Shown here piece by piece: positions 8,379 to 64,000 of a stretch of 64,000 bases of DNA. A program made the translations under genes and the position numbers. This DNA is from Candidatus Babelota bacterium (GTDB lineage: Bacteria > Babelota > Babeliae > Babelales > JAUPTZ01), in assembly GCA_030917815.1 (NCBI GenBank), contig JAUPTZ010000013.1:3109-67108 (forward strand), in the 5' to 3' direction. The notes beneath the pieces are model-generated. The model was not told the DNA's origin, searched no databases, and saw nothing but the letters and a program-made list of their open reading frames with translations. Each line of letters begins with the position of its first letter. Position 1 is the first letter of the stretch.

Positions 8379-8451
8379 GATGAATCCTACACTATAATAA
8401 ACACTATACCTTTTAACGGTATCAAAAAAATCACCGGAAAACAAACAGAAA

Positions 8452-8473
8452 GGCCTCGGTTTTCACCGAGGCC
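8452..8473. terminator. Bidirectional intrinsic terminator hairpin
   Basis: ggcctcgg-ttttca-ccgaggcc with T-runs on both strands, 29 nt after the stop of the 8502-9242 gene. Confidence 0.65.
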
Positions 8474-8501
8474 TTTTGTATTCTCTTTAGAGAAAGTAGG
8501 A

Positions 8502-21546: not shown

Positions 21547-21556
21547 AGCACCCTCG

Positions 21557-23565: not shown

Positions 23566-23588
23566 AACAACTCCTCAGAAAAAGCATC

Positions 23589-24320: not shown

Positions 24321-24359
24321 ACATAATCTCCCGGTTATGTCGGCATCGCACCTACGATT

Positions 24360-25250
24360 TTACCGACTTGTTGGTACTTTTGAAACGCGCTTATGATACG
24401 AGAAAAAGAGCGCGCAGTACAGCAGAAGCAATGTAGAGAGAGCAAAACCTTTTACTTCATTAATCCACTCATGGCGTGTCAGTGCAAAGAGATGATCGGC
24501 AGAATATTCCAAACCAATCGCAATCACCGCAAATAATGTCATCAACCCGGCAGTGTAGGCCCAGTGAGCGTTAAAAAGCTTCGTCCCCTTAGAAATCGAC
24601 TCTCCGATGCCTTTACCCTGCATAATAAAAGCCAATGCATAGGTGCTAAAAATAATTGATAAGCGAAAGAAATAAAAAACCACCGCATACAATGCTACCG
24701 CCGCAAGCCCTAGCCCAATAAGCATACCAATAACACTCAGCGACTTGGGTTGTGCATTATACATGCACCCATAGTAGCCGAGCGTATCAAGCCCCACTTT
24801 TGCCATAACGAGCACCGGCAAAAAGACCAATGCCGCCATAAAAAGCGCCTTTGAGTAACGATACACATAGCTGAAGAATGTGCCCACGCAACTCATCATC
24901 CAGGATAAAAGACTAGTGCTTTTTCTTGTTTTTACTTTAAGCGAAAACATTTGACGACCGAGCTCTGCAATACAAAAAACCGATGCCAGCGAAACGGTAT
25001 ACTCATGAAAAGAAACAGAACCCATGAGGACATGCGCAGACAAGAAAAGCTTTGTGCTCAAGAACGCTTGCGCATCAATCGCTAATAATCCAATCGAGAT
25101 GACGGTACCACATATCAAAATAATGAATGGTGTCATGAGCTGATCGGTTAACGTAACCAGTTCATCCCAATGAGCACCCACACTTAAACCTTTTATAAAT
25201 TTGCGTCCTAATTCGTATGGAAACCTTATCACAGCTCTCTTCCTTTGCAT
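24360..25250 (-). CDS. Polytopic membrane protein, unknown function
   Basis: 296-aa ORF with about 7 hydrophobic segments. I recognise no motif. Confidence 0.6.
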   Translation of the reverse strand: MQRKRAVIRFPYELGRKFIKGLSVGAHWDELVTLTDQLMTPFIILICGTVISIGLLAIDAQAFLSTKLFLSAHVLMGSVSFHEYTVSLASVFCIAELGRQMFSLKVKTRKSTSLLSWMMSCVGTFFSYVYRYSKALFMAALVFLPVLVMAKVGLDTLGYYGCMYNAQPKSLSVIGMLIGLGLAAVALYAVVFYFFRLSIIFSTYALAFIMQGKGIGESISKGTKLFNAHWAYTAGLMTLFAVIAIGLEYSADHLFALTRHEWINEVKGFALSTLLLLYCALFFSYHKRVSKVPTSR

Positions 25251-33470: not shown

Positions 33471-34829
33471 ATGATCGCGCTTATTACCGCATTTATCCTC
33501 TATACGCTCATCCTTATTGGTATTGGCGCTTATGGCTACAAAAAAACCTTGGCCTCTGGTGATTTTGGCACCGGCAACCGCACCATGAACTACTGGATCA
33601 CCGCACTATCAGCCCTTGCTGCCGACATGGGCGTTTATCTCTTTTTTGGCTTGCCTGGCGCTGTCTATCTCTCAAGCACCGAATGTTGGACCGTTTTCGG
33701 CCTCGTCGGCGGGATGTGGGCAACCTGGCATTTCATTGCACCAAAACTCCGTACTCGAAGCGAAGAAAGCAACAGCAGCACCCTTACTCATTTCCTGTGC
33801 ACAACGGCCGGGGATACTCACGGGTACCTCACGATCGTTAGCTCAACATTACTTACCTTCTTCTTTATCTTTTACATTGCGGCCGCTTTTAGCGGTATTG
33901 GCAACATTATTGCCTACACCTTTGGGTCACCCTACTGGATTGGCGTCGTTGCAAGCGCCTGCATGGTTACCTTTTATATATCGGTTGGCGGCTATCTTAC
34001 CGTTGCGCTAGCCGACGCTTTTCAAGGTGTTTTTCTCCTCTCAATGGTAGTCATCGTCCCCCTTATTACCGCATGGAACTTAGCAAAAACCGGTGTTTTC
34101 TCAGGGCCGACTGACTACACTGCATTCACGCCGACAACGATCGGTATTGGCGCCGGTATAGCGGCTGCGGTCAATTGGGGTCTTGGCTACCTTGGTATGC
34201 CACATATTCTTACTAAATTTATGGGAATCGACTCGGTTAAGAACATGAAAAAAGCCCAGTACCTTGGGCTCTCTTTTCAAGCCATTGCGCTGAGTTCCTC
34301 GGCCATTATCGGCCTCCTCGCTCGCTCCTACTTCCACACCCCACCTGCATCGGCCGAAACTCTTTTTTTACATATGGTTATGGAGCAATGCGCGCCCCTG
34401 CTAGCCGGTTTCATTCTCTGCGCAGTTATGGCGGCCGCAATCTCATCGCTTGATGCACAACTTATTGTCTGCGCATCGGTTATTGCCCGAGATCTCTTTA
34501 AGGCAAAAAATGCTCATCAAGAAAAAATCATCACCCGCCTCAGCACGATGGCCATCGCAGCCATTGGGGTCTGCATTGCGCTCACAAACACAAGTACCAT
34601 GTATGCCATGGTCCGCTATGCCTGGTCAGGACTTGGCAGTACCTTTGGCCCACTCGTTGTCATGAGCCTTTATGCACCACAACAACTCACCACCCGAAGC
34701 GCACTGGCCGGCATATTAGTTGGTGGCCTCACTGCCGCCCTTTGGCCTTATTACGGACCATTTTTAGCAACGGCACCGCTTATTCCTGGCTTTTGTAGCG
34801 GCCTCTTTGTTATGTACGCCTTACCCTAG
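33471..34829 (+). CDS. Sodium:solute symporter family (SSF) transporter
   Basis: 452 aa with about 12-13 TM segments. The N-terminal pattern (YLILIGIGAYGYKKT..DF..GNR.M) is typical of PutP/PanF-like SSF proteins. The substrate cannot be called. Confidence 0.75.
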   Translation: MIALITAFILYTLILIGIGAYGYKKTLASGDFGTGNRTMNYWITALSALAADMGVYLFFGLPGAVYLSSTECWTVFGLVGGMWATWHFIAPKLRTRSEESNSSTLTHFLCTTAGDTHGYLTIVSSTLLTFFFIFYIAAAFSGIGNIIAYTFGSPYWIGVVASACMVTFYISVGGYLTVALADAFQGVFLLSMVVIVPLITAWNLAKTGVFSGPTDYTAFTPTTIGIGAGIAAAVNWGLGYLGMPHILTKFMGIDSVKNMKKAQYLGLSFQAIALSSSAIIGLLARSYFHTPPASAETLFLHMVMEQCAPLLAGFILCAVMAAAISSLDAQLIVCASVIARDLFKAKNAHQEKIITRLSTMAIAAIGVCIALTNTSTMYAMVRYAWSGLGSTFGPLVVMSLYAPQQLTTRSALAGILVGGLTAALWPYYGPFLATAPLIPGFCSGLFVMYALP

Positions 34830-36871
34830 TCGCTGTCTACTTTGTTCTTTCGGTACTGAGCGTATTTGTAGAGACCGGCCACTGCAAGCGCACCAGCAGT
34901 AGCAAGACCTGCATAGGCAAAGCCTTGGCCAACTTTTTGTGCGGTGCTCATGCCACCAGCTGCTTTATATGGCGTAAGTCCCCAAAAGGCATGCGCCTTA
35001 TCGGTAAAGCTTTTCTTAACATTGGCAGGAAGCACCCCAACTTCCGCATCATTGGCAATGGCAATCCCGGTTATCGGTGCGCGGCTAATAAATCCCGCAG
35101 TCGGGCTATCACGATCAAGAGATACCGGCACCACAATACCGTCCGGGGATGAACACCAATATTGAAACGGAGAATACGAGAATTGAGACTCTCGCGCATC
35201 CTTACCCCACCAATCATAATACGGTGGTGGATTAACTACAAAGCCACTTGGTATCAATAAAACCCCATCGTACGAAACCGCATGGTCAGCAGTTAAGAAT
35301 TTAACCTGAATCATCGCCCCTACATCACTAGGATTAGCCCACGTTGTTTTAAAATTCTTTATGCTTGTATCAATACCATCTTCAAGTACCGCACTCATTT
35401 CTTTTCCAAGCGCATAAAATGCCGACTCGGCTAAAACCATGGCATTCAACGGAAAAATTTGTACCTCCTCCCTTGCAAGTACCGTTACCTTATTAAGTGG
35501 ACGCATATAAAAAGCACATTGACCGCCAAAGAACTTCGCACTCGCCGCTATAACAAACCCACTTGCGTCGTACGAAAGCTGCAACTGCTGGTAAAGATCT
35601 TGCCGATCTTTATCAATCTTCTTCTGTTTATTTTGATCAGAATCGGAAACACCCACAAGTGCGAGATACGAAGATCGAAGGCTTTCTTGCTTATCTGCGG
35701 TAACCGGATACGCAAGCCCATCAACATATATCTGCCCTGATGGATTTAGTGCTGGATCAAAAAAAGCACCCCCTTGTATAGAAATTGAGGTCGCATCGGC
35801 CGAAAGTGCAAGACCAGCTGTCGTATTTTTCCACGCCGAAAACGCTGGCACAGTAGCGGTCACCGGACTGGTCAATGACAGCGCGATGAAGGTGGTATCG
35901 GTCGGCGTTGCACCACTAACTGCAAGATAATAATCGGCCAATTTCATACCAAAAGAGGTTGGCACGAATATCCGATGTGGCTGTGGTATTATGCCTGAAG
36001 AACTAGCGCTTATGCCATCATGCGACAGTTTATTAAGCCAATATTGCTTTACCGTAATCGGTGCCATGAGAGGATTCATTACTTGATAGATCATGCTTTG
36101 CGGGAGATTATAGGTAGTTGTTCCTATAGTTACCGCTACGGTCGCAGCGGTCGCTGTCGCAACGCTTACGGCAGCCAAAGTATTAGAAATCGTATACGAA
36201 CCAACCACCGGCTGAGGACTGACGTACCCATTTGCTCGAGCACCAATAATAGGGGCATTTTCCGGATTCGAGATATCAAATGCGAGACGCTTACACGGAT
36301 CCATAAGAATATCACAATCGAACGACGAGATCGGATAAGGCTTTGGCACATTCCCTGCCCCGATTGCCACCGCATCATATGCAATAGAGGTCTCATTACC
36401 GCCGGTTGCAAAAGCCTGCAATGCAACAGCCCCCGACGGATATTTTACGCAGACCAAATAATTATCACCATGAATCCACATTCGCGTACGACCATCGGTG
36501 GCAAGCCCAACCCCACTTACATCTACCCAGCGACTCCCATCAAATACCACCGCCAAATAGACCGTTGTCATAACTTGCTTGCCGCTAATCAGTTGTGGTG
36601 TACCATCAGCGTTGTACCAGGCAACCTCTGCCGCATAGTAATACGGCGCAACAAAAATAGGGCTTCCCCCGGGCGGAGAGAGCACTGCTTTACGAAGCGT
36701 GAATAGTGAAAGTTCACCAACCTGATAGATCGGCGCACTCTTACCAGGAGCGAGCTGTGGGGTAATGGCAATCTTCCTCTCTACAAAATCATCAGCAGAA
36801 AGCCACCCACCACCGGAAACAATACAGAGAACTAGAAAACTTTTAAGAACTTTATGTCGCACAGAATACAT
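34826..36871 (-). CDS. Large signal-peptide protein with C-terminal TM anchor, paralog 1
   Basis: 681 aa. N-terminal hydrophobic signal, then C-terminal GFAYAGLATAGALAVAGLYKYAQYRKNK. Roughly three quarters identical to the next gene. Confidence 0.75.
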   Translation of the reverse strand: MYSVRHKVLKSFLVLCIVSGGGWLSADDFVERKIAITPQLAPGKSAPIYQVGELSLFTLRKAVLSPPGGSPIFVAPYYYAAEVAWYNADGTPQLISGKQVMTTVYLAVVFDGSRWVDVSGVGLATDGRTRMWIHGDNYLVCVKYPSGAVALQAFATGGNETSIAYDAVAIGAGNVPKPYPISSFDCDILMDPCKRLAFDISNPENAPIIGARANGYVSPQPVVGSYTISNTLAAVSVATATAATVAVTIGTTTYNLPQSMIYQVMNPLMAPITVKQYWLNKLSHDGISASSSGIIPQPHRIFVPTSFGMKLADYYLAVSGATPTDTTFIALSLTSPVTATVPAFSAWKNTTAGLALSADATSISIQGGAFFDPALNPSGQIYVDGLAYPVTADKQESLRSSYLALVGVSDSDQNKQKKIDKDRQDLYQQLQLSYDASGFVIAASAKFFGGQCAFYMRPLNKVTVLAREEVQIFPLNAMVLAESAFYALGKEMSAVLEDGIDTSIKNFKTTWANPSDVGAMIQVKFLTADHAVSYDGVLLIPSGFVVNPPPYYDWWGKDARESQFSYSPFQYWCSSPDGIVVPVSLDRDSPTAGFISRAPITGIAIANDAEVGVLPANVKKSFTDKAHAFWGLTPYKAAGGMSTAQKVGQGFAYAGLATAGALAVAGLYKYAQYRKNKVDSD

Positions 36872-36928: not shown

Positions 36929-39022
36929 CTAATATCCGTCTGCTTTTCGTTGTCGATACTGGGCGTATTTGTAGAAAGCAGTCAACGCAAGCGCACCGCC
37001 GGCAGCAATACCTGCATAGGCAAAGCCTTGGCCAACTTTTTGTGCGGTGCTCATACCCGCTGCTGCTTTAGTTTCTTCTTTATACGGAGTCAATCCCCAA
37101 AAGTCATGCGCCTTATCGGTAAAATTTTTCTTGAGATCGGCAGAAAGCGCAGTGACTTCCGCATCATCAGCAATAGCAAGACCGGTTATCGTCGACCCGC
37201 TAAAATCAGCAGACAACTGCGACACAACGCCACCCGATGGCGAATACCAGCATTGAAGACATAACGGCGCCATATCATAACGATAATATGGTACCGGATT
37301 AGCTACAAAGCCACCTCTCGTCACTAAAATTCCATCGTACGACACCGCAGCATCGGCGGTCAAAAATTTAACTTGGATCATCGCACCTACTTTACTTGCG
37401 TCGGCCCAGACTTTTTTAAGATTTTTTGCGCTCGTATCGATACCGTCCTCAAGTACCGCATTCATTCCTTTGCCAAGCGCATAAAATGCCGACTCGGCTA
37501 GAGCTACCGCATTCAACGGATTTTGTAGTACCTGATCCCTTGCAAGTACCGTTACCTTATTAAGTGGGCGCATATAAAAACCACATTGACCGGTAAAAAA
37601 TTGTGCACTTGCTGCTATAACAAACCCACTAGCATCGTATGTAAGCTGCAACTGCTGGTAAAGGTCTTGACGATCTTTATCAATCTTTTTCTGTTTATCC
37701 GGATCAGAATCTGAAACACCCACTAGTGCGAGATACGAAGATCGAAGGCTTTCTTGCTTGTCTACGGTAACGGGATAGGCAAACCCATCAACATACATCT
37801 GCCCTGATGGCCTTAATGTCGGATCAAAAAAAGCGCCTCCCTGTATCGAGATTGAGGTCGCATCGGCTGAAAGCGCAAGCCCAGATGCAGTGTTTTTCCA
37901 CGCTGAAAAAGCTGGCACGGTAGCGGTCATCGGACTGGTCAGTGATAACGCGATAAAAGTAGTATCGGCAGGCGTTGCACCACTAACCGCAAGATAATAA
38001 TCGGCTAACTTCATATCAAAAGCAGTGGGGACACACGCCTTAAATGGCTGTGGAGTTACGACGGGGGAACTAGCGGGCAAGGTACCTGCCGAAGAAACAG
38101 CACTTATGCCACCATGCGATAACGTATTAAGCCAATATTGCTCTACTGTAAGCGGCGTTGCTGCCACTGGAGTTTTCGACCCGGCAGCCGGTGTAGCGGC
38201 TATCGACGTTGTGAGAGGATTCATTACTTGATAGATCATGCTTTGCGGAAGATTATAAGTAGTTGTTCCTATAGTTACCGCTACAGTAGCAGCGGTCGCT
38301 GTCGCAACGCTTACTGCAGCCAAAGTATTGGAAATAGTATACGAACCAATCACCGGCTGAGGACCGGCGTACCCATTTGCTTGAGTTTCAATAATAGTGC
38401 GACCGCACGATCCATCAGTATTAAAAAACGTAGCCGGCAGTGTAAGGACATCAAGATCTAACGAAGAAATCGTATAAGGCTTCGGCACATTTGCTGTACC
38501 AATTGCTACGGCATCATATGCAATAGAGGTCTCATCACCACCGGTTGCAAAAGCCCGCAATGAAACAACCCCTGAGGCACTCTTTGAGCAAACCACATAG
38601 TTATCACTATGGGTCCACGTCCGCGTAACACCATCGGGTGCAAAGCCAACCCCACTCACATCTTTCCAGGTGCGTAGAGACGTATCATACATCAACGCCA
38701 AATAGACCGTTGTCGTAACCTGCTTACCACTAATAAGTTTTGGTGTACCACCAGTGTTGTACCAGGTCACCTCTGCCGCATAGTAATACGGCGCAACAAA
38801 TATAGGACTCCCCCCGGCCGGAGAGAGCACCGCTTTACGAAGCGTAAATAGTGAAAGTTCTCCAATACTCAGCTGCGTCATCTTACCGGGAGCGGCCGGT
38901 AGCTGCGGTACCGACACCGAAATTTTCCTCTCCACAAAGTCATCGGCAGAAAGCCAACCACCACCAAAAACAATACCGAAAAATAGAAAACTTTTGAGGA
39001 GCTTATGTCGCACACAATACAT
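36929..39022 (-). CDS. Large signal-peptide protein with C-terminal TM anchor, paralog 2
   Basis: 697 aa with the same architecture. The leader sequence (tttgaaaggtc.atgc.ATGta) is shared with paralog 1. Confidence 0.75.
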   Translation of the reverse strand: MYCVRHKLLKSFLFFGIVFGGGWLSADDFVERKISVSVPQLPAAPGKMTQLSIGELSLFTLRKAVLSPAGGSPIFVAPYYYAAEVTWYNTGGTPKLISGKQVTTTVYLALMYDTSLRTWKDVSGVGFAPDGVTRTWTHSDNYVVCSKSASGVVSLRAFATGGDETSIAYDAVAIGTANVPKPYTISSLDLDVLTLPATFFNTDGSCGRTIIETQANGYAGPQPVIGSYTISNTLAAVSVATATAATVAVTIGTTTYNLPQSMIYQVMNPLTTSIAATPAAGSKTPVAATPLTVEQYWLNTLSHGGISAVSSAGTLPASSPVVTPQPFKACVPTAFDMKLADYYLAVSGATPADTTFIALSLTSPMTATVPAFSAWKNTASGLALSADATSISIQGGAFFDPTLRPSGQMYVDGFAYPVTVDKQESLRSSYLALVGVSDSDPDKQKKIDKDRQDLYQQLQLTYDASGFVIAASAQFFTGQCGFYMRPLNKVTVLARDQVLQNPLNAVALAESAFYALGKGMNAVLEDGIDTSAKNLKKVWADASKVGAMIQVKFLTADAAVSYDGILVTRGGFVANPVPYYRYDMAPLCLQCWYSPSGGVVSQLSADFSGSTITGLAIADDAEVTALSADLKKNFTDKAHDFWGLTPYKEETKAAAGMSTAQKVGQGFAYAGIAAGGALALTAFYKYAQYRQRKADGY

Positions 39023-46916: not shown

Positions 46917-48398
46917 TCACATATAGAAAGAAAAAAGAATGATTTGAACAATAACCCATACCACATCACCGGCTAAAACGCCGGACCAAAACAATGTGCT
47001 TTTCGCCACCCGACGCGTTATCGCACGAATGCCCGCACCGCAGGCAAGTGCAATAATCAAACCATTGGGCATAATAAGACCACCAAATACCATCGCTGCG
47101 TTAATACCTAAGCGATCAAGAAGAAAACCCAGCGCAATACCAAGAAGGACAATCGTCGTATTAAATTGAAAAGTGTTCATCAATAATGCCCGTGAGATTC
47201 CCCGATGCGCAATCAATGGAGAGACACCAAGCGTGAAATGGGTACATAATAGCCAGATAAGGACTCCAATACTCATCGCAGTAATAGCGACTCCATAGTA
47301 TTGTGCACGACGTAACGTTGGCTCATCAATGCCACACTGCTGAGCAATTTTGTAGGAAAACAAACTATCAACAAGCACTCCGCCCGCAATACCAATCAAC
47401 GTACAGGCAATAACCACCGAAACACCCGACACCCCCGGAATACACATCAACGGAATCATAGCAATCGTCATGTAACGACCATAGGTGGCAAGGCCAGTAT
47501 GCGCCGCAAGATCACCTAAATGCCGCAGCAACGGCACTAAAATAATCGCAAAAAAACAAACCCCGGCCAGAGACATATTAAAGTAGTAACAGAGACCGGC
47601 CACCAGCACTCCACTCCACAAATCGGTTTTTCTCAATACCGCCAGAGTTGTTGCTCTTAAAGAAACTATAGAACGCATCGGATGATAGACAAACGGCTTT
47701 ATAAAACTACTCACTAAGAGGCCACTACACAACGCAAACGTCACATCAAGCGTTGAAAGCGCTGGATAGCATTGCCCCAGTGGCGCCACCACCACATATT
47801 TACCGGCCATTCCCACCAACATAGGCATTACAATACTTGTGCCGGCCAGAAACCCGGCCGCCCAACAAACCGGTGACAGCCCAAGTGCCCAAAAATAGTT
47901 AGCGCACCCGGTTGCCATTGCGCACAAGATTCCGCCGCCAAAAATACCGGCTTCAAGTGGACCATAAGAACTTGCAATGGCGCTCGTAACGGCCGCACTT
48001 ACCGGAAACGGTGTCGCATCATGCAGCAATGCCGGCACCGCATGCTTTGCAATGCGGATGCCAAGAATGCCGGCCGATAATACCAGCACTGCCATGAGCG
48101 CGCAAAACCAAAGCGGTGCAGCCATCCAACTCGCCCACAGGGCTGGGTCAATAAAATAAAGCGTAGGAAGCGAGAATCCAATGCCGGTGGCAATAGCACC
48201 TCCAAACGAGGCGGTAATAGTTATCAGGGCAATAGTGCGACTTTCAAGTCGCTTAAAAGAGAATGATCCACCCAACCGCACCATCATGACAATCATTGGC
48301 CCAATCCAGGGCCCCAACCCGGTCGCTAACGAAACATACAATAAGATAGCAGCCGAAAAAACCGTCAACACTGCCGAAAAAATAAGCGTAGATAGCAT
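46917..48398 (-). CDS. Polytopic transporter-like membrane protein (possibly OPT-superfamily)
   Basis: 493 aa with about 14 hydrophobic segments. The N-terminal pattern resembles bacterial OPT proteins, but I cannot verify family membership. Confidence 0.45.
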   Translation of the reverse strand: MLSTLIFSAVLTVFSAAILLYVSLATGLGPWIGPMIVMMVRLGGSFSFKRLESRTIALITITASFGGAIATGIGFSLPTLYFIDPALWASWMAAPLWFCALMAVLVLSAGILGIRIAKHAVPALLHDATPFPVSAAVTSAIASSYGPLEAGIFGGGILCAMATGCANYFWALGLSPVCWAAGFLAGTSIVMPMLVGMAGKYVVVAPLGQCYPALSTLDVTFALCSGLLVSSFIKPFVYHPMRSIVSLRATTLAVLRKTDLWSGVLVAGLCYYFNMSLAGVCFFAIILVPLLRHLGDLAAHTGLATYGRYMTIAMIPLMCIPGVSGVSVVIACTLIGIAGGVLVDSLFSYKIAQQCGIDEPTLRRAQYYGVAITAMSIGVLIWLLCTHFTLGVSPLIAHRGISRALLMNTFQFNTTIVLLGIALGFLLDRLGINAAMVFGGLIMPNGLIIALACGAGIRAITRRVAKSTLFWSGVLAGDVVWVIVQIILFSFYM

Positions 48399-48529: not shown

Positions 48530-48606
48530 GCGCCCATAGCTCAATTGGATAGAGTACCAGACTACGAATCTGGCGGTTATAGGTTCGACTCCTATTGGGC
48601 GCACCA
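48530..48606 (+). tRNA. tRNA-Arg (anticodon ACG)
   Basis: Acceptor GCGCCCA/TGGGCGC, anticodon stem CCAGA/TCTGG with loop CTACGAA, T-loop TTCGACT, encoded CCA. Confidence 0.9.
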
Positions 48607-48750
48607 ATTTACGCCAACGCGCCTGTGCCAAAGGCTCGGCACGTTGAGGCTTCAGCAGGCTACGCCGTTAAAGGCGCTCGCTGCTTGCCCGAAGATGTCT
48701 TTGAAAAACATTGAATTGTTGTTACACATGCGGTATAACGCATGTGTTGC
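48607..48750. repeat. Hairpin-rich spacer, probably related to the repeat family
   Basis: Hairpins gtgcc-aaaggctc-ggcac, agcag..cgcc-gttaaa-ggcg..ctgct and acacatgcg-gtataa-cgcatgtgt. Contains the family word acattgaattg (also at 13820 and, on the reverse strand, at 28848). Confidence 0.5.
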
Positions 48751-48842
48751 GGAGAGGTGGCTGAGTGGTCGAAAGCGCGCGCCTGCTAAGTGTGTATACT
48801 CGTAATTGGGTATCGAGGGTTCGAATCCCTCCCTCTCCACCA
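48751..48842 (+). tRNA. tRNA-Ser (anticodon GCT)
   Basis: Acceptor GGAGAGG/CCTCTCC, anticodon loop CTGCTAA, long variable arm, T-loop TTCGAAT, encoded CCA. Confidence 0.9.
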
Positions 48843-49102
48843 TCCTGCGCCGCTAAAGCGCAAGACAGATGGTGTCCGCCAAAGCTCCGATAGAGGAGCG
48901 CAGGAGGACCTGGCAGGTATCAGCTTCGCCATATGCTCGCTGATACCAAAAACAACCTCATCCATATATAGTACATTAAGCGACTGCGAGAGCATGCTCG
49001 TGGCAGACGCTGTGGCGGCACAGTCCGCCGGCAAAATTAACGTCAGCCGACACGTCGACGTCGGCACATCCCGCGGAGCGAGCAGCTCCTGCGAGTAACG
49101 AG
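48843..49102. repeat. Repeat-family composite filling the gap between the two tRNA-Ser genes
   Basis: The hairpin tcctgcgc...gcgcagga starts at the first base after CCA. gcgcaagacagatgg matches 30105-30119. 49026-49102 parallels 9596-9671. Confidence 0.8.
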
Positions 49103-49190
49103 GGAGAGATGGCAGAGCGGTTGAATGCGACGGTCTTGAAAACCGTTATGTTGAAAGGCATCGGGGGTTCGAATCCCTCTCTCTCCACCA
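49103..49190 (+). tRNA. tRNA-Ser (anticodon TGA)
   Basis: Acceptor GGAGAGA/TCTCTCC, anticodon loop CTTGAAA, long variable arm, T-loop TTCGAAT, encoded CCA. Confidence 0.9.
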
Positions 49191-53881: not shown

Positions 53882-55186
53882 TTAAGCGGTTGCTTTTGGT
53901 CTATAGAAAAAAACATAGGCCGCTCGTATCCAGTCATTAACTGCCGAAGAGTTAGACCCACCCATCAGAGGCCCCTCAATCATCGGCACGAGCACCCCGG
54001 TACGCGTATGCACCGTATCGAGCGCCTCTTGTATTATAGCCTGGCGCTTTTTGCGCTCTTCATCAAGCTCAACCCCAAAACCCCCTGCTATAGCTGAAAA
54101 AACAATGCGATGGTGACGTGAGTTATGCATAAGACCGGCTAAATTCTCGATTTGCCTATGTATCTTAAGAAGCAGCTGCTGGCCCGCATCACCGGTAGGA
54201 TCTGTATCAAGATGCTGCACGATACTCTGCTGACACGCAGAGAGCTCTTGTAGTGCATCGACAAAAGCGGCATCAGATGCAATAGCGGTATAATGCTCAA
54301 TCCATTCAGCGAGTTGATTATCCCCAGAAGGCAGCGAATTCTCCGGCAACGCTGCGTAGGCAACCTGTGCTTTTTGCATCCACGCAGACATTTCAGGAGT
54401 TGGCGTTACGGGTACTATCGAAAATTTACTACCCACCAGAGCAGAAACAGGCTCATGAACCGCCGCCGCCAACTCCAAAAACGTCTTATTCATCTCTTGC
54501 GCCTTACGGGCCAATCCGGTAAATATGGCCGTAATCTCACTACGCTCAGCTTCTGTCTTCTTGTTCATATAGGTAGATAAATACTGAGTATTCGCATTCG
54601 CCTTCACTACCCAGTCCATAGCAAACTGACCGGTCGGATCTTGCGCAAGATTATCTTGCAACTCAGATAATGCCGCATAATGATCCCTCATATAGGCCGC
54701 ATACTCCTTATCTTTATAGAGAACGGTAAAGTACTCTATAAGCTGTTTCAATTCCTCATCATTAAGAATTTGGGCTACTTGTGTGTCTTTAAATGCATCT
54801 ATCATGGAATAGACCTCAGTTATATCGATTATCGTTTGCCAATCAACCGACTTCTGCTCCTCGCATTTAACAATGGCAACATCCAATGCCTCACTTGCGC
54901 TCAACATCGCCTGTGCTTTTTTGCGCAGCAAGGTTGCTTGAACACGTAAATGAGCCACGGTAGAGATCTCTTTTCCTAAAATTTCTTTGATCTGAACAAG
55001 TTCAAATCCTAAAAACTTTAACGCCAAGATCTGCTGCAACCGTTGTAAGTCGGCCTCAGAGTACAAGCGATAGCCATTATCCAATCGTATACTCGGCTTG
55101 AGTAAATTAATCTCATCATAATGATGCAGCGTGCGCACCGAAATGCGCATTAATTTACTCAGCTTTCGTACTAACCATTGTGCCAT
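53882..55186 (-). CDS. TipA/Mta-like MerR-family regulator with duplicated C-terminal effector domain
   Basis: The HTH SVRTLHHYDEINLLKPSIRLDNGYRLYSEADLQRLQQILALKFLGF is typical of the TipAL/Mta subgroup. The C-terminal half contains two related segments (LQDNLAQDPTGQFAMDW and VQHLDTDPTGDAGQQLL). Confidence 0.8.
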   Translation of the reverse strand: MAQWLVRKLSKLMRISVRTLHHYDEINLLKPSIRLDNGYRLYSEADLQRLQQILALKFLGFELVQIKEILGKEISTVAHLRVQATLLRKKAQAMLSASEALDVAIVKCEEQKSVDWQTIIDITEVYSMIDAFKDTQVAQILNDEELKQLIEYFTVLYKDKEYAAYMRDHYAALSELQDNLAQDPTGQFAMDWVVKANANTQYLSTYMNKKTEAERSEITAIFTGLARKAQEMNKTFLELAAAVHEPVSALVGSKFSIVPVTPTPEMSAWMQKAQVAYAALPENSLPSGDNQLAEWIEHYTAIASDAAFVDALQELSACQQSIVQHLDTDPTGDAGQQLLLKIHRQIENLAGLMHNSRHHRIVFSAIAGGFGVELDEERKKRQAIIQEALDTVHTRTGVLVPMIEGPLMGGSNSSAVNDWIRAAYVFFYRPKATA

Positions 55187-55241: not shown

Positions 55242-56084
55242 CTATTTTGCCGCTTCATAAGCTGCCAGTATCCAGTGCATCATTTCAACGGTCATGTCGG
55301 GTCCCAGCTGAACCTTCACGCCAGAGCGCTGCACCGCAAGCCGTATTGCTTTTGATATAAGCTCTACAATGTCCTGTTGCTGCTGCTTGCTCCGCTTTGC
55401 AAAACCGGCGTAAAGCAATGTACCGATAACCTCTTGTGCCTTTTCTCTATGCACTGAGGGTATGCTACCCATGAGAGTACCATACGCCCGCCAACGCATG
55501 CCCCACTCTTTGCCAATTGAGCTGTGAGGATCAACCCCATCGGCCATAAGCACTTTAAGCTCTTCAAGAAGCACCCGCTCCTCATGCATAAGGTCCAAGA
55601 ATTTTCGATCTCTGCTCAGGGCCGCATAATATTCAACCAAATCCCTTAGCTGAGATTCACTCAAAAAGTTCTCATACAGCTCTTTACGCAATGCATCTGC
55701 CATAGAATATACCTCGGTTATATGGACTACTATTTTCCAATCGACCGATTCCCGTTTCTCACAGCGAGCGATCGCACTCTCAAGCGCTTCACGAGCATGC
55801 AATAAAGCCTCTGCTTTTTGTAGCAAAAGATCTGATTGAAGTTGTAAATGGGCAAGCGATGATGATTCGGCCGCTAAAACTTTCTTAATTTGATCTAACC
55901 CAAATCCTAAAAACTTTAAGGCCAAAATCTGCTGTAGTCGTTGTAAATCGATCTCAGAGTAGAGGCGATAGCCATTATCCAGGCGTAAACTTGGCTTGAG
56001 TAAACCAATGCGATCATAATGATGCAATGTCCGCACCGAAATGCGCATAAGCTTACTCAGCTTGTGTATCAACCATTGGGCCAT
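55242..56084 (-). CDS. TipA/Mta-like MerR-family regulator (280 aa)
   Basis: The N-terminal 115 aa are about 75 percent identical to the neighbouring regulator. A single C-terminal effector-type domain carries LMADGVDPHSSIGKEWGMRW. Confidence 0.8.
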   Translation of the reverse strand: MAQWLIHKLSKLMRISVRTLHHYDRIGLLKPSLRLDNGYRLYSEIDLQRLQQILALKFLGFGLDQIKKVLAAESSSLAHLQLQSDLLLQKAEALLHAREALESAIARCEKRESVDWKIVVHITEVYSMADALRKELYENFLSESQLRDLVEYYAALSRDRKFLDLMHEERVLLEELKVLMADGVDPHSSIGKEWGMRWRAYGTLMGSIPSVHREKAQEVIGTLLYAGFAKRSKQQQQDIVELISKAIRLAVQRSGVKVQLGPDMTVEMMHWILAAYEAAK

Positions 56085-57854: not shown

Positions 57855-59120
57855 ATGAGAAAAAATATAATTATACCGTATTTTTTTGCTACGATTCTTA
57901 TTGCAACCGCCTATCCACTGCAGGCCCGATGGAACCACCTCGCCACCGCCGGCGTAGCGGTTGCCGGACTCAACTTAGCCGCACAGCTAGCAGACAAAAA
58001 GCAGCGCACTGCATTGTTTAAGGCAAGCACACGCACCAATCAAACGCCTTTCACCGCTCGTATGCGTATGGCATTATTGACCGGATTGCCCTTGGCAGCT
58101 GCACTTATCTATGCATTAACTGGACAACTACCAGCACCGCAAAAAACAGCCACCCCGCCGGCCACTAAACCACTCAGCAAGCCTCAAGAACAACCGATAG
58201 TTCCTCCAGCAGCAAAGCCGACTGCCACCGAGGCACAGAAAAAAGCACTTGGGGAAAAAGTATTAAGCACCTATCGAACCTACGTAAACAATAAAAAATA
58301 TAAGAAAGAGCAGCCATTTAGAAATCTAGTAACGCAAGCAACAACGGCACAAGAAACAAGAACCGCTCTTGAACAAGCGGCCACCAACACCATCATCGAA
58401 AACTACCGTACTATCCGTCATAACCGACAGGGAGCAAGATTTCGGGACGTGGTAGAGCGCGCTCAGGCAGAAGAACGAGATCGCATTGCCCTAGAAGCTG
58501 AAATCGCCCGTTTCGGAGCAGAAGCAGCAGCACAGCGTGTACGAGAAGAAGCGGAACGAATTGAACGGGAACAACGAGTGCATGAAGAGCGCGTAACCAC
58601 TCAAGTAAAGGTTATAACCGATCAACTTGAACAAGTTTTAGAATCTACCGATATTGTAGTCAGCCTCAAAGACGAAATTACAGCCGAATATGAACGTATG
58701 AAAACTCTTCTGACAAGCGGTGGTGCCGCCTTAAGAAATGCAACCACACCAAGCGAGGCTCAGCAGGCAGGTGAGAATGTGCTACGTAATCTTCAAGCCG
58801 CACAAGATGCTGTTGAATCAGCGCAGCGATTAGCTCGATCTGCTCAGGCTGAAGCCGAAGGTATACGGGAAGCATCTCGAACCCTGTACAATCAGCATAC
58901 AGCCTTTGGCCTTGCCGAGCGAACTGCTCCACTGCGTGACACCGCTATGCAAACAGCCGAACAGGCACAGATGGCCGCCCAGGAAGCTGCCGAACGAGTA
59001 CACATGATCAGAGGAAGAACAAGATACGCCATACTGATGGCTCGTGAGTCAATTACCGCGGCACGGAGAACCTTTCCTGGACTAAGTATTATGCCGCCCG
59101 ACTATCCTGATGAAAACTAA
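57855..59120 (+). CDS. Membrane-anchored Pro-rich/coiled-coil protein, unknown function
   Basis: Three N-terminal hydrophobic segments, the linker PAPQKTATPPATKPLSKPQEQPIVPPAAKPTATE, then about 280 aa of A/E/R/Q-rich heptad-like sequence. Confidence 0.65.
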   Translation: MRKNIIIPYFFATILIATAYPLQARWNHLATAGVAVAGLNLAAQLADKKQRTALFKASTRTNQTPFTARMRMALLTGLPLAAALIYALTGQLPAPQKTATPPATKPLSKPQEQPIVPPAAKPTATEAQKKALGEKVLSTYRTYVNNKKYKKEQPFRNLVTQATTAQETRTALEQAATNTIIENYRTIRHNRQGARFRDVVERAQAEERDRIALEAEIARFGAEAAAQRVREEAERIEREQRVHEERVTTQVKVITDQLEQVLESTDIVVSLKDEITAEYERMKTLLTSGGAALRNATTPSEAQQAGENVLRNLQAAQDAVESAQRLARSAQAEAEGIREASRTLYNQHTAFGLAERTAPLRDTAMQTAEQAQMAAQEAAERVHMIRGRTRYAILMARESITAARRTFPGLSIMPPDYPDEN

Positions 59121-59773
59121 TCAAGCTCTTTCGAGGCTGCCGCGACAGTATTCGATCGATACCATTGGAACTGTACGCACAACACAATGCAATACCCAAC
59201 CGCACGCAAACCATTGAATACGCTCTGTATCGGTAGGTTAAGCAGAAACGAAATAATCATCTCCATGAATCCGGCAAAACCCAACATCGAAATGTAGGCA
59301 AAGCTTAACCCTTTAACACTCTTGCGGGCATGATTTTTGAGTACTTGCGGTAGCTGAGTAAAAATCTGTACCACGACCGAGATCCATCCCATTGCATTAC
59401 CAATCGCATCGGGATACCACCAAGCGACAGCTAACATTGCGGCGGTAACGACATGAAGCACCACGTATGAGGCAACCAGAAATGTGCGTGCCTCTTTATC
59501 GCGACAATAGTAAAAGCATTGCATCACCAAGATGCTAATATTAAACATTAACAACGGCTCCATCACTCGACAGGCAAGGGGAAGCATCAGTAAAAAAGTG
59601 TAGACAGTCGTAGCCATGTTACCGGTGTAATCAAAAAACACCATCCGATAACTCAACCCTGACGTAGAACGATTTTTATAATTCAACAAAATTTGCGGAA
59701 TCCCGGCAAAATAATAAATAGTGAATGGAATCCAGGCTGTCCAGCCGTACGAAATAACACTCAACTCGGCCAT
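59117..59773 (-). CDS. Seven-TM PQ-loop repeat protein, paralog 1
   Basis: Two PQ motifs: IPQILLNYKNRSTSGLS and LPQVLKNHARKSVKGLS. Confidence 0.8.
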   Translation of the reverse strand: MAELSVISYGWTAWIPFTIYYFAGIPQILLNYKNRSTSGLSYRMVFFDYTGNMATTVYTFLLMLPLACRVMEPLLMFNISILVMQCFYYCRDKEARTFLVASYVVLHVVTAAMLAVAWWYPDAIGNAMGWISVVVQIFTQLPQVLKNHARKSVKGLSFAYISMLGFAGFMEMIISFLLNLPIQSVFNGLRAVGYCIVLCVQFQWYRSNTVAAASKELD

Positions 59774-59782
59774 ATAAATCCC

Positions 59783-60409
59783 TTACGATGCTCTCTTCTT
59801 TTTACTAAACGATGCAAATTGATAGATAAAGATCGTATAGACTAACAGACCTCGCACCGCATTCAAAACACTTTGTATTGGCAAGAGCCGCCAGTAAGCA
59901 ATTCCAAGCTCAGCACATGCGGCCGAACCAAGCATAACTACATACCAAATACTCAATCCTTCAACGCTTTTTTCTCGCTGATTTTTAATAAGCTGCGGCA
60001 ATTGAAAAATCGCGTATAAAATCGTAAAAAGCCACCCGGTTGAAAAGCCAACCTCAAGTGGGTACATGCCACCCCAAAAAAGAACGGCCAAGGCGATAGT
60101 AACCACCGCAGCGTAGCTGTACGCGATCTCTTTCGAGACACTTTTACGCCCGCTATACCAAAATTCCTGCAAAGCCAACATCGTCCATGCCAATAAAATG
60201 AGTGGATGCATAACCCGATACGCAAACGGCAGGCACATAAAATGGTCGTACAAGAGAGAACACATAAGGCCACTAATGCCCAAAAAAACCGTCCATTGGC
60301 TTAAGCTTTTGGTCGATTGCTTACACCAATTCAAATAAACCTGAGCTAACGGTGCACCGCAAAAGAGGATCATCGGAATCCAGGCAATATACTCGGATAA
60401 ATGAATCAT
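59783..60409 (-). CDS. Seven-TM PQ-loop repeat protein, paralog 2
   Basis: First motif is degenerate (APLAQVYLNWCKQSTKSLS); second is LPQLIKNQREKSVEGLS. Confidence 0.8.
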   Translation of the reverse strand: MIHLSEYIAWIPMILFCGAPLAQVYLNWCKQSTKSLSQWTVFLGISGLMCSLLYDHFMCLPFAYRVMHPLILLAWTMLALQEFWYSGRKSVSKEIAYSYAAVVTIALAVLFWGGMYPLEVGFSTGWLFTILYAIFQLPQLIKNQREKSVEGLSIWYVVMLGSAACAELGIAYWRLLPIQSVLNAVRGLLVYTIFIYQFASFSKKKRAS

Positions 60410-60496
60410 GAATAAAACCTTGGTAATGCGCCTATACGCGTTTTTATCGATAGGCAGCAGTACACCATAAAACGACCTGGTGAAAACAGATATTAT

Positions 60497-61141
60497 CTAT
60501 TTTGCACCACTGTTGCCTGACGCAGTAGCACTAGAACGATTGCGATAGATAAAAAACTGCGCTAGATAAATCAAATAACAGGTCGTGACGCGCAAGGTCG
60601 CTAGTATCGTTGGCATTGGCAACCCGTAGTAGAGGGAAAGCGACAAATCACATATCCCTCCCCACCCAATGGCCGATGAAAACAGAATATTAAAACCAAC
60701 CGTACTTTTACGTTTCCAATTTCGATAAATCTGCGGCATATCGGACATGACACCGGTAATAACTGCTAACCAACCGCCAAGCATCCCGGCCTGTAGCGGA
60801 TACCACTGGCTAAAAATAAGCAGCGCAACCAGCGTAGAAACCAGCTTAAGATAACAGAAGCGGAGCCACCGTTGCTCGTGCCAGATCTTATCGTAAAAAT
60901 ATCCCTGTAGCGCCAAAACAATAATACCGGAAAGACAGGCCGGATAGAGCACTTTATGCGCCAAAGGAAGGTTCAACAGATAGACATATACCGTATAGGT
61001 AGAAACCGCAAAAATACGGAGAAATAGCATCCAGGCGCTTAATCCAACCGCATCACCACGACGATAATTGGTTAAGATTTGAGGCCACGATGCCACCGTG
61101 TATAACGATATTGGCACCCACATTAATACGGTATAGTCCAT
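60497..61141 (-). CDS. Seven-TM PQ-loop repeat protein, paralog 3
   Basis: WPQILTNYRRGDAVGLS and MPQIYRNWKRKSTVGFN. The likely start is MDYTVLMWV at 61141; the track ORF extends to 61204, overlapping pepA. Confidence 0.8.
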   Translation of the reverse strand: MDYTVLMWVPISLYTVASWPQILTNYRRGDAVGLSAWMLFLRIFAVSTYTVYVYLLNLPLAHKVLYPACLSGIIVLALQGYFYDKIWHEQRWLRFCYLKLVSTLVALLIFSQWYPLQAGMLGGWLAVITGVMSDMPQIYRNWKRKSTVGFNILFSSAIGWGGICDLSLSLYYGLPMPTILATLRVTTCYLIYLAQFFIYRNRSSATASGNSGAK

Positions 61142-61169: not shown

Positions 61170-62678
61170 TTATTTATTGGCCATATATCGACGTACAAAC
61201 TCAACCATTACGCGAACACCGGTTCCGGTTGCGCCCTTACCTAAATACGTTGTACCAGGAATTTTGCTGTCGGTACCAGCAATATCAAGGTGAGCCCAAC
61301 GACGACCTTTATCAATGAAATGCTCAAGGAACAAGGCGGCTGTAATCGCGCCGGCTTTGTAGGTTTGCGATCCAGAGTTTGAAATATCAGCAACGGTTGA
61401 TTCAATAGCCGGCTTATATTCGTCAGACAACGGCAACGGCCACACCTTATCACCGACAAAGAATCCGATATCGGTTAATTCTTTGGCCAATTCTTCGTCC
61501 CGCGTCATAAGACCGGCATAGAAAGGCCCAAAGGTTGCGGCGCATGAACCGGTTAGTGTTGCAATATCGATCACTACGGCCGGATCAAATTTCTTTTGTA
61601 CATAGCACAATGCATCGGACAAGATGAGGCGCCCTTCCGCATCGGTATTTTCAATTTCAACATGCAAGCCATTCATTGCGGTCACCACGTCATCTTGCTT
61701 ACTTGCTCTGCCACTTGGCATATTTTCAACCAACGGCGCAATACCAACAACCCGAACATTTGGTTTAATTTGAGCAATAATTTGTAACGCCGCAAAGACG
61801 GCGGCCGCGCCGGACATATCATACTTCATGCCGGTCATATAGTTGGATGGCTTCAGGCTGATACCACCGGTATCAAAACACACCCCTTTACCCACCAACG
61901 CGATCACCGGAGCGTTTGCATTGTTCACCGGTGCATACTCAAGCATTACAATCTTGCCTTCATGCTCAGAACCTTTTGCTACCGAGTAAAAGCAACCCAT
62001 GCCCATCGCGCGAGCTTCTTCTTGCTCAATAACCGTATATCCAAGGCCAAATTCTTTAGCGATACTAGCGGCTTTTTCGGCCATAACGGCCGGATACATA
62101 TGGTTGCCTGGGGTGTCGGCAAGCGTACGAGCCATGTTCATTGCTTCACCCACCAATGAACCGGTCTTGAGTGTTTCGGCTTTGGTCACATCGGTTGCCG
62201 TAATAAACAGCGATGGCTCCCATAATTTCTTATCTTTTTTAAATGTGCTGTAATGGTAGCTGGCAAGGTGCAACACGGTCGCAATTTGCTCTAAGTAAAC
62301 GTCACACGAAAGACCAAACGGTTTTGGTGCAGGAACACAGACAAGAATTTCTTGGGCTCCGGTTGCTTGAAGGTGATTGTAGCCGCTGCCCAACGCACGT
62401 CGCAGCGTCTCCATATTCTCAACCGATTTTTTATCAAGATCACCAAGACCCACAAAAACAAACGGTATCCCATTAACCACATGGACGCACGACTGCCCCG
62501 CCTTGCCCATAAATTTCATCGCTTTAAATACCGCGGCAAGATCAACACCCTTAAGATAAGGTGCGATAGCGTCACTCGTTAAAGAATTAAAGGTGGTTGA
62601 AATTTCCGAAGCCATAACCGGAACGAGAACAGCACCTATTGTTTGTGCCGCTGATTGAAATGATACTGAAATGCTCAT
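61170..62678 (-). CDS. pepA: Leucyl aminopeptidase (M17)
   Basis: VGKGVCFDTGGISLKP, NTDAEGRL and the GATG region are M17 hallmarks. Confidence 0.93.
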   Translation of the reverse strand: MSISVSFQSAAQTIGAVLVPVMASEISTTFNSLTSDAIAPYLKGVDLAAVFKAMKFMGKAGQSCVHVVNGIPFVFVGLGDLDKKSVENMETLRRALGSGYNHLQATGAQEILVCVPAPKPFGLSCDVYLEQIATVLHLASYHYSTFKKDKKLWEPSLFITATDVTKAETLKTGSLVGEAMNMARTLADTPGNHMYPAVMAEKAASIAKEFGLGYTVIEQEEARAMGMGCFYSVAKGSEHEGKIVMLEYAPVNNANAPVIALVGKGVCFDTGGISLKPSNYMTGMKYDMSGAAAVFAALQIIAQIKPNVRVVGIAPLVENMPSGRASKQDDVVTAMNGLHVEIENTDAEGRLILSDALCYVQKKFDPAVVIDIATLTGSCAATFGPFYAGLMTRDEELAKELTDIGFFVGDKVWPLPLSDEYKPAIESTVADISNSGSQTYKAGAITAALFLEHFIDKGRRWAHLDIAGTDSKIPGTTYLGKGATGTGVRVMVEFVRRYMANK

Positions 62679-62805: not shown

Positions 62806-63180
62806 TCAAGAAAGAGAGGGCAGCGCTATCCGTAATGCCTCAAGCGCTAAAAGAACACAGCGCAAACGGGTTGGTCCAACAGCCACCCCAATACGTTCTT
62901 GCATATATTGCGCATTGATCGTTGCAATCTTTGATACCGATAATCCATGAAGATGCTCCATAAGCATTGAGGCGGCCGCTTGGCTCAACACACAGCCTTC
63001 CCCTTGGAATCCACAGGCAATCACTCGGCCATCAACTATCCTGCCCGCAACTGAAATGCGGTCACCACACGATTGATTCACCAGTGCGGCTGAAAAATGA
63101 GGGTTCTCTATAACTCCCCGGTGCCGAGGAAATTTGTAGTGGTCAAGCAGCTCATCGTGGACTAACATGGCGCCATTCAT
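62806..63180 (-). CDS. sufU: SufU/IscU-type Fe-S scaffold or sulfur-acceptor protein
   Basis: DHYKFPRHRG, NQSCGD, GEGCVLSQA and VGPTRLRC motifs. The ATG at 63180 overlaps the sufS stop (ATGA). Confidence 0.8.
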   Translation of the reverse strand: MNGAMLVHDELLDHYKFPRHRGVIENPHFSAALVNQSCGDRISVAGRIVDGRVIACGFQGEGCVLSQAAASMLMEHLHGLSVSKIATINAQYMQERIGVAVGPTRLRCVLLALEALRIALPSLS

Positions 63181-64000
63181 AAGATTTCTCGCCAGCGAGA
63201 GATACAATTGCGTAGTGCTGCAATAAGATGCTCAACCTGCGCCGGTGAATTATACATAAAAAAGCTAGCCCGAACCGTTGCTTTATTGCCCCATAATGAT
63301 GAAAGTGGCTGAGCACAATGATCACCGGCACGCACCGCACACCCATACTGACCCAAACTTGAGGCCAGATCATGAGCATGAATGCCATCAACATAAAAAC
63401 TAACCACATGCCCTTGCGATGACAGCAGCTCCTTATTGCCCACCACATGAACACCCGGGATACTCTCAAGCGCGCCAATGAGCTGCGCACAAAGCGTCGC
63501 TTCCTGCTGCCGCAATGCGGCAAAATCAACGTATTTCGTATAAAAATCAAGTAATGCCCCAAGACCAACCACTTGCGCTATTGGCGGTGTTCCGGCTTCA
63601 AAGCAATGAGGAGCGGCCTGCCACGTCATAAAGTCGTCGGCTACCGCAGCCACCATGCCACCACCAAACCGATACGGCTTCATATGCGCATGCATGCTAC
63701 TTCGCGCATACAAGACACCGAGCCCGGTTGGTCCACCCATCTTATGAACAGAGAAAGCGAGAAAATCACACTCAAGCCTCTCTACATCAATTGGTGCATG
63801 AGCAATCGTTTGTGCCGCATCAATGATTACACCGGCCCCGACAGAGCGAACCTTAGTAATGCACTGACGAAGCAGATAGTTATCAGCACCCCAGATTGGC
63901 CCGAGAACATTTGAGCTCATCGTTGCCGCAAAGACTTTAATAGATTTGGTCAAAAGATGATCAAGCCCGGAAACATCTACACAGGAAGTTATGGGATCAA
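63177..64000 (-). CDS. sufS: Cysteine desulfurase SufS, C-terminal about 274 codons (runs off the right edge)
   Basis: PLP-lysine region FSVHKMGGPTGLGVLY and catalytic loop RAGDHCAQP. The frame is open to base 64000. Confidence 0.9.
   Translation of the reverse strand, partial: DPITSCVDVSGLDHLLTKSIKVFAATMSSNVLGPIWGADNYLLRQCITKVRSVGAGVIIDAAQTIAHAPIDVERLECDFLAFSVHKMGGPTGLGVLYARSSMHAHMKPYRFGGGMVAAVADDFMTWQAAPHCFEAGTPPIAQVVGLGALLDFYTKYVDFAALRQQEATLCAQLIGALESIPGVHVVGNKELLSSQGHVVSFYVDGIHAHDLASSLGQYGCAVRAGDHCAQPLSSLWGNKATVRASFFMYNSPAQVEHLIAALRNCISRWREIL

Follow-up and report, generated by a model that had tools for sequence, protein, structure and literature searches.

The single-chain, seven-helix form of the PQ-loop proteins is that of the human lysosomal disease genes for cystinosin and PQLC2. 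Cystinosin (SLC66A4/CTNS) is a lysosomal H+/cystine symporter, and PQLC2 (SLC66A1), together with LAAT-1 and Ypq1-3, represents the lysosomal or vacuolar exporters of cationic amino acids. A SemiSWEET is a three-helix unit of about 90 amino acids (aa) that forms an obligate dimer. Single-chain seven-helix members of the clan are also known from bacteria and archaea, with 24 listed by Saudek (2012, PMC3281891) and 20 by Jia et al. (2018, PMC5972207); they are functionally uncharacterized. Here, we analyzed a stretch of 64,000 nucleotides of contig JAUPTZ010000013.1 (the window), part of a metagenome-assembled genome (MAG) of Candidatus Dependentiae (TM6), and describe three tandem genes in it, PQ-A, PQ-B and PQ-C, that encode seven-helix PQ-loop carriers. 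Dependentiae are intracellular bacteria of protists; they depend on their hosts, lack most biosynthetic pathways and rely on host imports. The three carriers are new, uncharacterized members of a known family, and have the PQ-loop family, seven helices and a small size in common with PQLC2/LAAT-1/Ypq1-3. The earlier prokaryotic examples (in Nostoc, Korarchaeum and Pseudoalteromonas) are isolated genes of free-living organisms; from these, the Dependentiae family is set apart, by description and not by sequence, through its tandem arrays of two to seven old paralogues in a host-dependent lineage.

Family, fold and predicted orientation of the three carriers

The three genes are minus-strand open reading frames lying in tandem (Table 1), exactly where a first-pass annotation of this DNA had placed three full-length, double-motif carriers with seven transmembrane helices (TMs). 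The same gene calls were obtained independently on six metagenome contigs, and PQ-B and PQ-C are 100% identical to the NCBI entries QG604_773 (Candidatus Dependentiae) and QG604_774, respectively. The Pfam PQ-loop profile PF04193 matched two stretches in each protein, with total scores far above the gathering cut-off of 22 bits (91.9 for PQ-A, 63.6 for PQ-B and 82.4 for PQ-C), so that the second motif is also supported by a profile search. PQ-A, PQ-B and PQ-C belong to the PQ-loop family (PF04193; TCDB 2.A.43/SLC66 superfamily). The Pro-Gln pair is found in TM1 and TM5 of PQ-A (P26-Q27 and P142-Q143) and likewise in PQ-C. In PQ-B, the Gln of the first motif is retained and its Pro is replaced, by Ala in 12 of 15 orthologs and by Thr in the other three. 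The reported pair of PQ signatures per protein therefore holds for PQ-A and PQ-C but not for PQ-B, whose first motif reads AQ.

An AlphaFold2 model of PQ-A was built from 35 homologues. It had a mean predicted local distance difference test score (pLDDT) of 92.3 and a predicted template modeling score (pTM) of 0.86, and showed seven helices (residues 2-34, 42-61, 66-89, 93-117, 121-150, 158-177 and 182-217) in a 3+1+3 arrangement: two three-helix bundles plus TM4 as the inversion helix, with kinks at both PQ motifs. When the model was compared with the PDB using Foldseek, human and Arabidopsis cystinosin, AtSWEET13, OsSWEET2b and the KDEL receptor were aligned over their full length, with query-normalized template modeling scores (TMq) of 0.58-0.68. 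The best match was cystinosin 8dyp (E 1.5e-6, TMq 0.68). SemiSWEETs aligned to only half of the model. No structure of PQLC2, LAAT-1 or Ypq1-3 was among these PDB matches.

The distribution of positive charges was then used to orient the bundle. Across 129 family members, the segments predicted to be cytoplasmic (loops 1-2, 3-4 and 5-6 and the C-terminal tail) had means of 2.2, 1.6, 2.0 and 2.5 Lys and Arg residues, and those predicted to lie outside had means of 0.15, 0.04, 0.36 and 0.33. From this charge bias only (positive-inside rule), the N terminus is predicted to be periplasmic, and the C terminus and both PQ loops cytoplasmic. The expected seven-helix topology was thus found in the PQ-A model, and the charge bias fits an N-out/C-in orientation.

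Cystinosin (8dyp, 8dke and 7zk1) was also the best solved match by sequence, with an E value of 3e-6 in a single-sequence search. The Dependentiae carriers and cystinosin have in common the 3+1+3 seven-helix bundle, two PQ motifs followed by an xxNxxxKS(T/V)xG(L/F)S loop as well as the inferred orientation in the membrane, and the FFDYTG motif of PQ-A resembles LLDFTGG of cystinosin. Unlike cystinosin, to which they are about 20% identical, the carriers have no N-terminal luminal domain and do not conserve K273, K280 and D305 in the second repeat. The Asp motif of PQ-A is in the first repeat and not in the second, and PQ-B and PQ-C lack it. The cystinosin model TIGR00951 has a cut-off of 192.35 bits; the three proteins, which score 42.5, 32.6 and 31.5 bits, fall outside that subfamily. 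They also fall outside the single-repeat family NF037968 (18-28 bits, cut-off of 80), which includes the SemiSWEETs 4rng and 4qnc. The SemiSWEETs belong to the same superfamily and are likewise bacterial, and each half of a Dependentiae carrier matches one of them, with target-normalized scores (TMt) of 0.83-0.89 over about 82 residues and 25-33 bits. A SemiSWEET is a single unit, whereas a Dependentiae carrier corresponds to two diverged units fused via a fourth helix. The Pfam family of the SWEETs, MtN3_slv (PF03083), gave no match at E<=1 in the three carriers, and their likeness to SWEETs is structural only.

Among the 129 family members, an acidic residue in TM6 (E/D171) was present in 118 and a basic residue in TM7 (R/K190) in 113, and this pair is common to PQ-A, PQ-B and PQ-C. 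Other helix positions carried polar or charged residues that are specific to a group and fixed within it. In the order A, B and C, position 48 was D, G and R; position 72 was E, H and Y; position 59 was T, D and V; position 86 was C, E and G; and position 140 was Q, Q and D. The paralogue-specific residues R43, D48, E72, H107 and Q136 of PQ-A were fixed in all 22 of its orthologs. PQ-B had a fixed G44, aligned with D48 of PQ-A, and fixed equivalents of D59, H72 and E86, and PQ-C had R42 aligned with D48 and an Asp immediately before the second PQ motif. Position 48 is located 22 residues past the first PQ proline, the same offset as that of cystinosin Asp305 in the second repeat. Asp305 binds the amino group of the ligand in cystinosin (PMC9385667). 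Position 48 and the other paralogue-specific positions may line the substrate pocket.

Age, distribution and origin of the family

Pairwise identity among PQ-A, PQ-B and PQ-C was 31-35%. Orthologs with more than 50% identity numbered 22 for PQ-A, 14 for PQ-B and 8 for PQ-C. In neighbor-joining (NJ) trees, the three fell into separate ortholog clades, each supported by 100% of the bootstraps, and L008 and L019 (related loci on other contigs are given L numbers) retained the order pepA>C>B>A. The low identity, the separate clades and the kept order together indicate that the triplication is old and preceded the divergence of the related genomes.

To define the family, an exhaustive HMMER search was run with a 35-sequence profile against 1.84 billion cluster representatives. 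It matched 162 representatives at E<=1e-30, 888 at E<=1e-10 and 3086 at E<=1e-3; the family as used here comprises at least 162 sequence clusters (E<=1e-30), with a further 726 representatives between 1e-30 and 1e-10. Nearly all of the best 150 representatives were 200-225 aa long and matched from end to end. A word-indexed homolog search, the sensitivity of which is limited by its word index, gave 43 matches (E<=1) with a gap in score between 167 and 59 bits. All organism names met among family members were Candidatus Dependentiae or Candidatus Babeliales, a taxonomy drawn from few named proteins; a scan with a narrower alignment gave three close loci.

The number of tandem copies varied between genomes. 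One copy was found in L010 and L016, two in L007, L012 and L018, three in the window and in L008, L014 and L019, four in L022 and seven in L009. The last of these, at positions 3820-9032 of a Candidatus Dependentiae MAG contig (JASFWT010000014.1), consists of seven consecutive full-length PQ-loop genes after sufS-nifU-pepA and is the largest array seen. We considered a heterotrimer of the three paralogues and rejected it, because the copy number ranges from one to seven. A literature search yielded no paper that joins Dependentiae with PQ-loop, cystinosin or SWEET. As part of the best joint explanation, which we hold to be fairly probable, the family has been inherited vertically and expanded in tandem within the obligately host-associated phylum Dependentiae.

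The seven-helix architecture had been taken in the first-pass annotation as a hallmark of eukaryotes, and an acquisition from a eukaryote had been suggested. The resemblance itself was borne out, in that the nearest solved relatives are eukaryotic cystinosins. However, the architecture is not diagnostic of eukaryotes, since seven-helix PQ-loop/MtN3 proteins have already been reported in prokaryotes, as uncommon (PMC3281891 and PMC5972207). For the comparison of sequences, the eukaryotic set contained the cystinosins of the PDB, two cystinosin-like genes (L023 and L025), one PQLC1 and two MPDU1 proteins. The two cystinosin-like genes (positions 257-1138 of L023 and 181-1245 of L025) lie on short AT-rich metagenome contigs; their products are cystinosin homologues of the eukaryotic type, which carry the LLDFTGG motif and have tails rich in Asn, Lys and Glu. 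They were picked up only through the RKSVKGLSF loop motif that they have in common with PQ-A, and served as outgroups.

Capture of a PQ-loop gene from a protist host by an ancestor of the Dependentiae, followed by triplication, appears quite unlikely in light of these comparisons. The bacterium does live inside protists, where such transfers are known, and its best PDB sequence matches, like its nearest solved structures, are eukaryotic cystinosins. Single-chain proteins with seven helices are, moreover, usual in eukaryotes and exceptional in prokaryotes (PMC3281891 and PMC5972207). Yet identity to every eukaryotic PQ-loop protein compared (cystinosin, PQLC1 and MPDU1) was 14-22%, and a 129-sequence family profile gave 59 bits for PQLC1, 58 for cystinosin and 47 and 41 for MPDU1, against 33 bits for a bacterial single-repeat SemiSWEET over half the length. 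Profiles of the N- and C-terminal bundles scored a median of 36-38 bits on the opposite halves of the family and 16-47 bits on eukaryotic halves. With the N-half profile, the C-halves of the family (median of 37.6 bits) scored at least as well as eukaryotic halves (16-39 bits). The two bundle profiles favored the same eukaryotic halves, with no N-to-N or C-to-C correspondence, and there is thus no sign of a fusion event shared with the eukaryotic proteins. An NJ tree with 200 bootstraps separated all 73 family sequences included from the five eukaryotic sequences in 121 replicates, and PQLC1 and MPDU1 (236-261 aa, similar in length to the carriers and 14-20% identical to them) grouped with the other eukaryotic sequences. 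The GC content of the three genes (0.44-0.46) and that at third codon positions (GC3; 0.48-0.51) were inside the range of the adjacent genes, and the family is spread across divergent Dependentiae with conserved flanks (nurA, secA or pepA).

What emerged was largely the placement that had been named as refuting that origin: a sizeable clade of at least 162 clusters, with Dependentiae or Babeliales as the only named members and with no special affinity to any of the eukaryotic subfamilies compared. Because the identities and the 41-59 bits are no better than half-to-half or SemiSWEET scores, and the GC content is ordinary, a recent eukaryotic acquisition is not supported. Judged from the sequences, a recent eukaryote-to-bacterium transfer is effectively excluded, and an ancient transfer, in either direction, is conceivable but without support. 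We also regard as unlikely a scenario in which a very old capture of a protist seven-helix gene, or an independent fusion of two SemiSWEET-like units, gave rise to a battery of two to seven carriers with varied charges at position 48 that would form the main amino-acid drain from the host cytoplasm. If true, the family would be the first from bacteria in which lysosomal SLC66 transporters could be modeled by tractable single-chain proteins.

Viral proteins were found among the structural matches of the PQ-A model in BFVD. Seven-helix proteins of the giant viruses Indivirus ILV1, Terrestrivirus and iridovirus LCIVAC01 matched with TMq of 0.69-0.80 and only 12-16% identity, and several phages and Mimiviridae encode single-repeat PQ-loop versions.

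Proposed transport function

We infer that the three proteins are probably non-redundant inner-membrane importers of the PQ-loop fold that take up small polar metabolites of the host, amino acids being the most likely. Each protein would form a single-chain 3+1+3 bundle, with the N terminus in the periplasm and with the C terminus and the PQ loops in the cytoplasm. This orientation would equal that of the lysosomal PQ-loop exporters when the lysosomal lumen is set equal to the periplasm, so that the homologous direction would be import into the bacterial cytoplasm, down the proton gradient. Alternating access would be hinged at the PQ kinks, and import would probably be proton-coupled via the pair formed by Glu/Asp171 in TM6 and Arg190 in TM7. 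The specificities and charge preferences of the paralogues may be set by fixed differences in the pocket, such as Asp in PQ-A, Gly in PQ-B and Arg in PQ-C at position 48. An import of host amino acids would fit the biosynthetic poverty of the Dependentiae.

Several points weigh against this proposal. The equivalents of cystinosin K273, K280 and D305 in the second repeat are S132, T139 and L164 in PQ-A, and neither Lys nor Asp occurs at these aligned positions in any of the three paralogue groups. PQLC1 and MPDU1, which are not known amino-acid carriers, score about as well as cystinosin (47-59 versus 58 bits), so that the sequence points to no single substrate class. In addition, most family members come from unassigned metagenome contigs, and the restriction to Dependentiae is therefore not proven.

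Two other classes of substrate are possible but less likely. The carriers could be SWEET-like facilitators for the uniport of host hexoses or disaccharides, which we consider improbable. AtSWEET13 and OsSWEET2b fit the PQ-A model nearly as well as cystinosin does (TMq of 0.66-0.67), and the SemiSWEET sugar transporters reach 25-33 bits with the family profile. However, the Pfam family MtN3_slv is unmatched even at E<=1 while PF04193 is strong, and the sequence search of the PDB found cystinosins and not full-length SWEETs. The conserved Glu/Arg pair, which is putatively buried, and the paralogue-specific Asp or Arg of helix 2 would also suit charged substrates or proton coupling better than the uniport of neutral sugars. 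Still more improbable is a role with lipid-linked or membrane substrates, for instance in the biogenesis of envelope glycolipids, like that of MPDU1 in dolichol-phosphate sugar utilization or of PQLC1/Any1 in phospholipid asymmetry. PQLC1 (SLC66A2) and MPDU1 (SLC66A5) are the best named eukaryotic matches of the family profile in a large protein database, in a search restricted by its word index, and weak matches to Pfam ER_lumen_recept were found, but PQLC1 and MPDU1 do not score better than cystinosin. Moreover, two to seven diverged copies with paralogue-specific residues in the putative pocket are more typical of the diversification of nutrient carriers, and the arrays have no flanking genes for envelope biosynthesis. 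Two further candidates were rejected: a cystine transporter, prompted by the upstream sufS-nifU genes, because the ligand residues of cystinosin are absent; and a host-targeted effector, because secretion of a polytopic protein with seven helices is improbable.

Genomic setting and significance

The array is bounded on one side by pepA and on the other by a convergent gene (Table 1).

Table 1. Positions of the carrier genes, their neighbors and other features of the window
Feature	Position	Strand	Description	Evidence
PQ-A	59117..59773	-	218 aa, seven-helix PQ-loop carrier; last in the array	PF04193 x2, AlphaFold2 model, Foldseek
PQ-B	59783..60409	-	208 aa, seven-helix PQ-loop carrier; middle gene	PF04193 x2
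PQ-C	60497..61141	-	214 aa, ATG start, seven-helix PQ-loop carrier; first after pepA	PF04193 x2
pepA	61170..62678	-	M17 leucyl aminopeptidase	Pfam Peptidase_M17 389.7 bits and M17 N-terminal domain; NCBIfam leucyl aminopeptidase models
NifU_N/IscU-like gene	62806..63180	-	Fe-S scaffold; conserved upstream neighbor	Pfam NifU_N 72.7 bits
Class-V aminotransferase gene	63177..64000	-	SufS/IscS-like cysteine desulfurase; runs past window end	Pfam Aminotran_5 223 bits
Convergent gene	57855..59120	+	421 aa; bounds the array downstream	no family match
M3 peptidase gene	14063-16216		about 45 kb from the array
SSF symporter gene	33471-34829		PutP-like; about 25 kb from the array
Polytopic protein gene	46917-48398	-	493 aa, about 11 hydrophobic segments	unmatched in Pfam and NCBIfam, even at E<=0.1-1
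MerR-family paralogues	53882-55186, 55242-56084	-	tandem regulator genes
Secreted-type paralogues	34826-36871, 36929-39022	-	681 and 697 aa, tandem	no Pfam/NCBIfam family
BatD-containing run	18735-25250	-	same-strand run, operon-like	Pfam check on BatD only
tRNA cluster	1353-2622	-	Trp-Thr-Thr-Gly-Tyr
tRNA cluster	48530-49190	+	Arg-Ser-Ser

The carriers were found directly downstream of pepA, as had been reported, and the intergenic gaps were 28 nt (pepA/PQ-C), 87 nt (PQ-C/PQ-B) and 9 nt (PQ-B/PQ-A). The adjacency of pepA and the array was kept in at least nine related loci. A same-strand block of sufS, nifU, pepA and the PQ-loop genes was present in the window and in L008, L009, L018, L019 and L022; L007 and L021 had the order of pepA and the array but not the sufS-nifU end. 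The class-V aminotransferase gene is the first of this block and is complete, with 436 aa, on contig L001. In L012, a Babeliales assembly, pepA and the array are parted by two opposite-strand genes. In the more distant Dependentiae L010, L014 and L015, the array comes after secA, with no pepA nearby, and the link to pepA is therefore a trait of one sub-lineage and not of the whole family. The array has nurA on its downstream side in L010, L012 and L014. The stop codon of the 421-aa convergent gene overlaps that of PQ-A by 4 nt; its product is rich in Ala, Gln and Glu, has hydrophobic segments at the N terminus and keeps its position on contigs L001-L006. On related contigs, TLC ATP/ADP translocases and large ankyrin-repeat proteins, both typical of host-dependent bacteria, are encoded beside PQ-loop arrays.

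This setting raises the question of whether the three carrier genes are joined with pepA in a single functional operon, either a peptide-to-amino-acid module or, with the upstream sufS-nifU, a module leading from Cys-Gly or cystine to Fe-S clusters. The closely spaced same-strand order in several genomes speaks for it, as does the interrupted version in L012. A scan for promoters and terminators gave fewer matches than in shuffled sequence and is uninformative on operon structure; in it, no convincing terminator was seen in the pepA/PQ-C gap. However, the secA-preceded arrays and the two opposite-strand genes in L012 stand against a fixed unit, and common descent alone may account for the synteny, because the genomes that keep the exact order are related, with PQ-A 53-79% identical. 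Amino-acid importers would also supply the cell in parallel with an aminopeptidase of the cytoplasm and not as a successive step, and the cystine-binding residues of cystinosin are absent. Such an operon is, on balance, doubtful. For the peptide-scavenging module proposed in the first-pass annotation, the adjacency to pepA and the M3 peptidase and SSF symporter genes were confirmed, but the latter two lie 25-45 kb away, arrays elsewhere follow secA, and the possible OPT transporter counted among its parts found no support. Pfam and NCBIfam searches detected no OPT transporter. The only unclassified polytopic candidate, the 493-aa protein, is probably the one that had been meant, and its OPT identity is unsupported. 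The 681- and 697-aa open reading frames were also considered for this role and rejected as secreted-type paralogues without a family match. A dedicated peptide-scavenging operon is thus not supported by the three carriers.

Several other features of the window were recorded. The 681- and 697-aa paralogues have near-identical signal-peptide-like N termini (MY[SC]VRHK..GGGWLSADDFVERKI) and may be secreted by this host-associated bacterium or located on its surface. The two MerR-family regulators have a near-identical N-terminal helix-turn-helix (MAQWL[VI][RH]KLSKLMRISVRTLHHYD), and their long C-terminal parts are divergent and without a family match. The genes around BatD form a same-strand run similar to an aerotolerance-type Bat operon. 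The GC skew was negative over all 64 kb, which is consistent with a single replichore, and most genes are on the minus strand.

The three carriers are notable as single-chain bacterial forms that have been tandemly expanded in a host-dependent phylum. On present evidence, they do not document a gene transfer from a eukaryote to a bacterium. Bacterial single-chain versions are rare and unstudied, and this compact (about 210 aa) and diverse family, which lacks a luminal domain and varies by nature in its putative pocket residues, could supply readily expressed model proteins for studying how SLC66-type carriers are built and how they work. It may also inform the question of how seven-helix proteins arose from SemiSWEET-like halves. 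The ATP/ADP translocases define the parasitic lifestyle of the Dependentiae, and the carriers would stand beside them as a candidate system for nutrient import.

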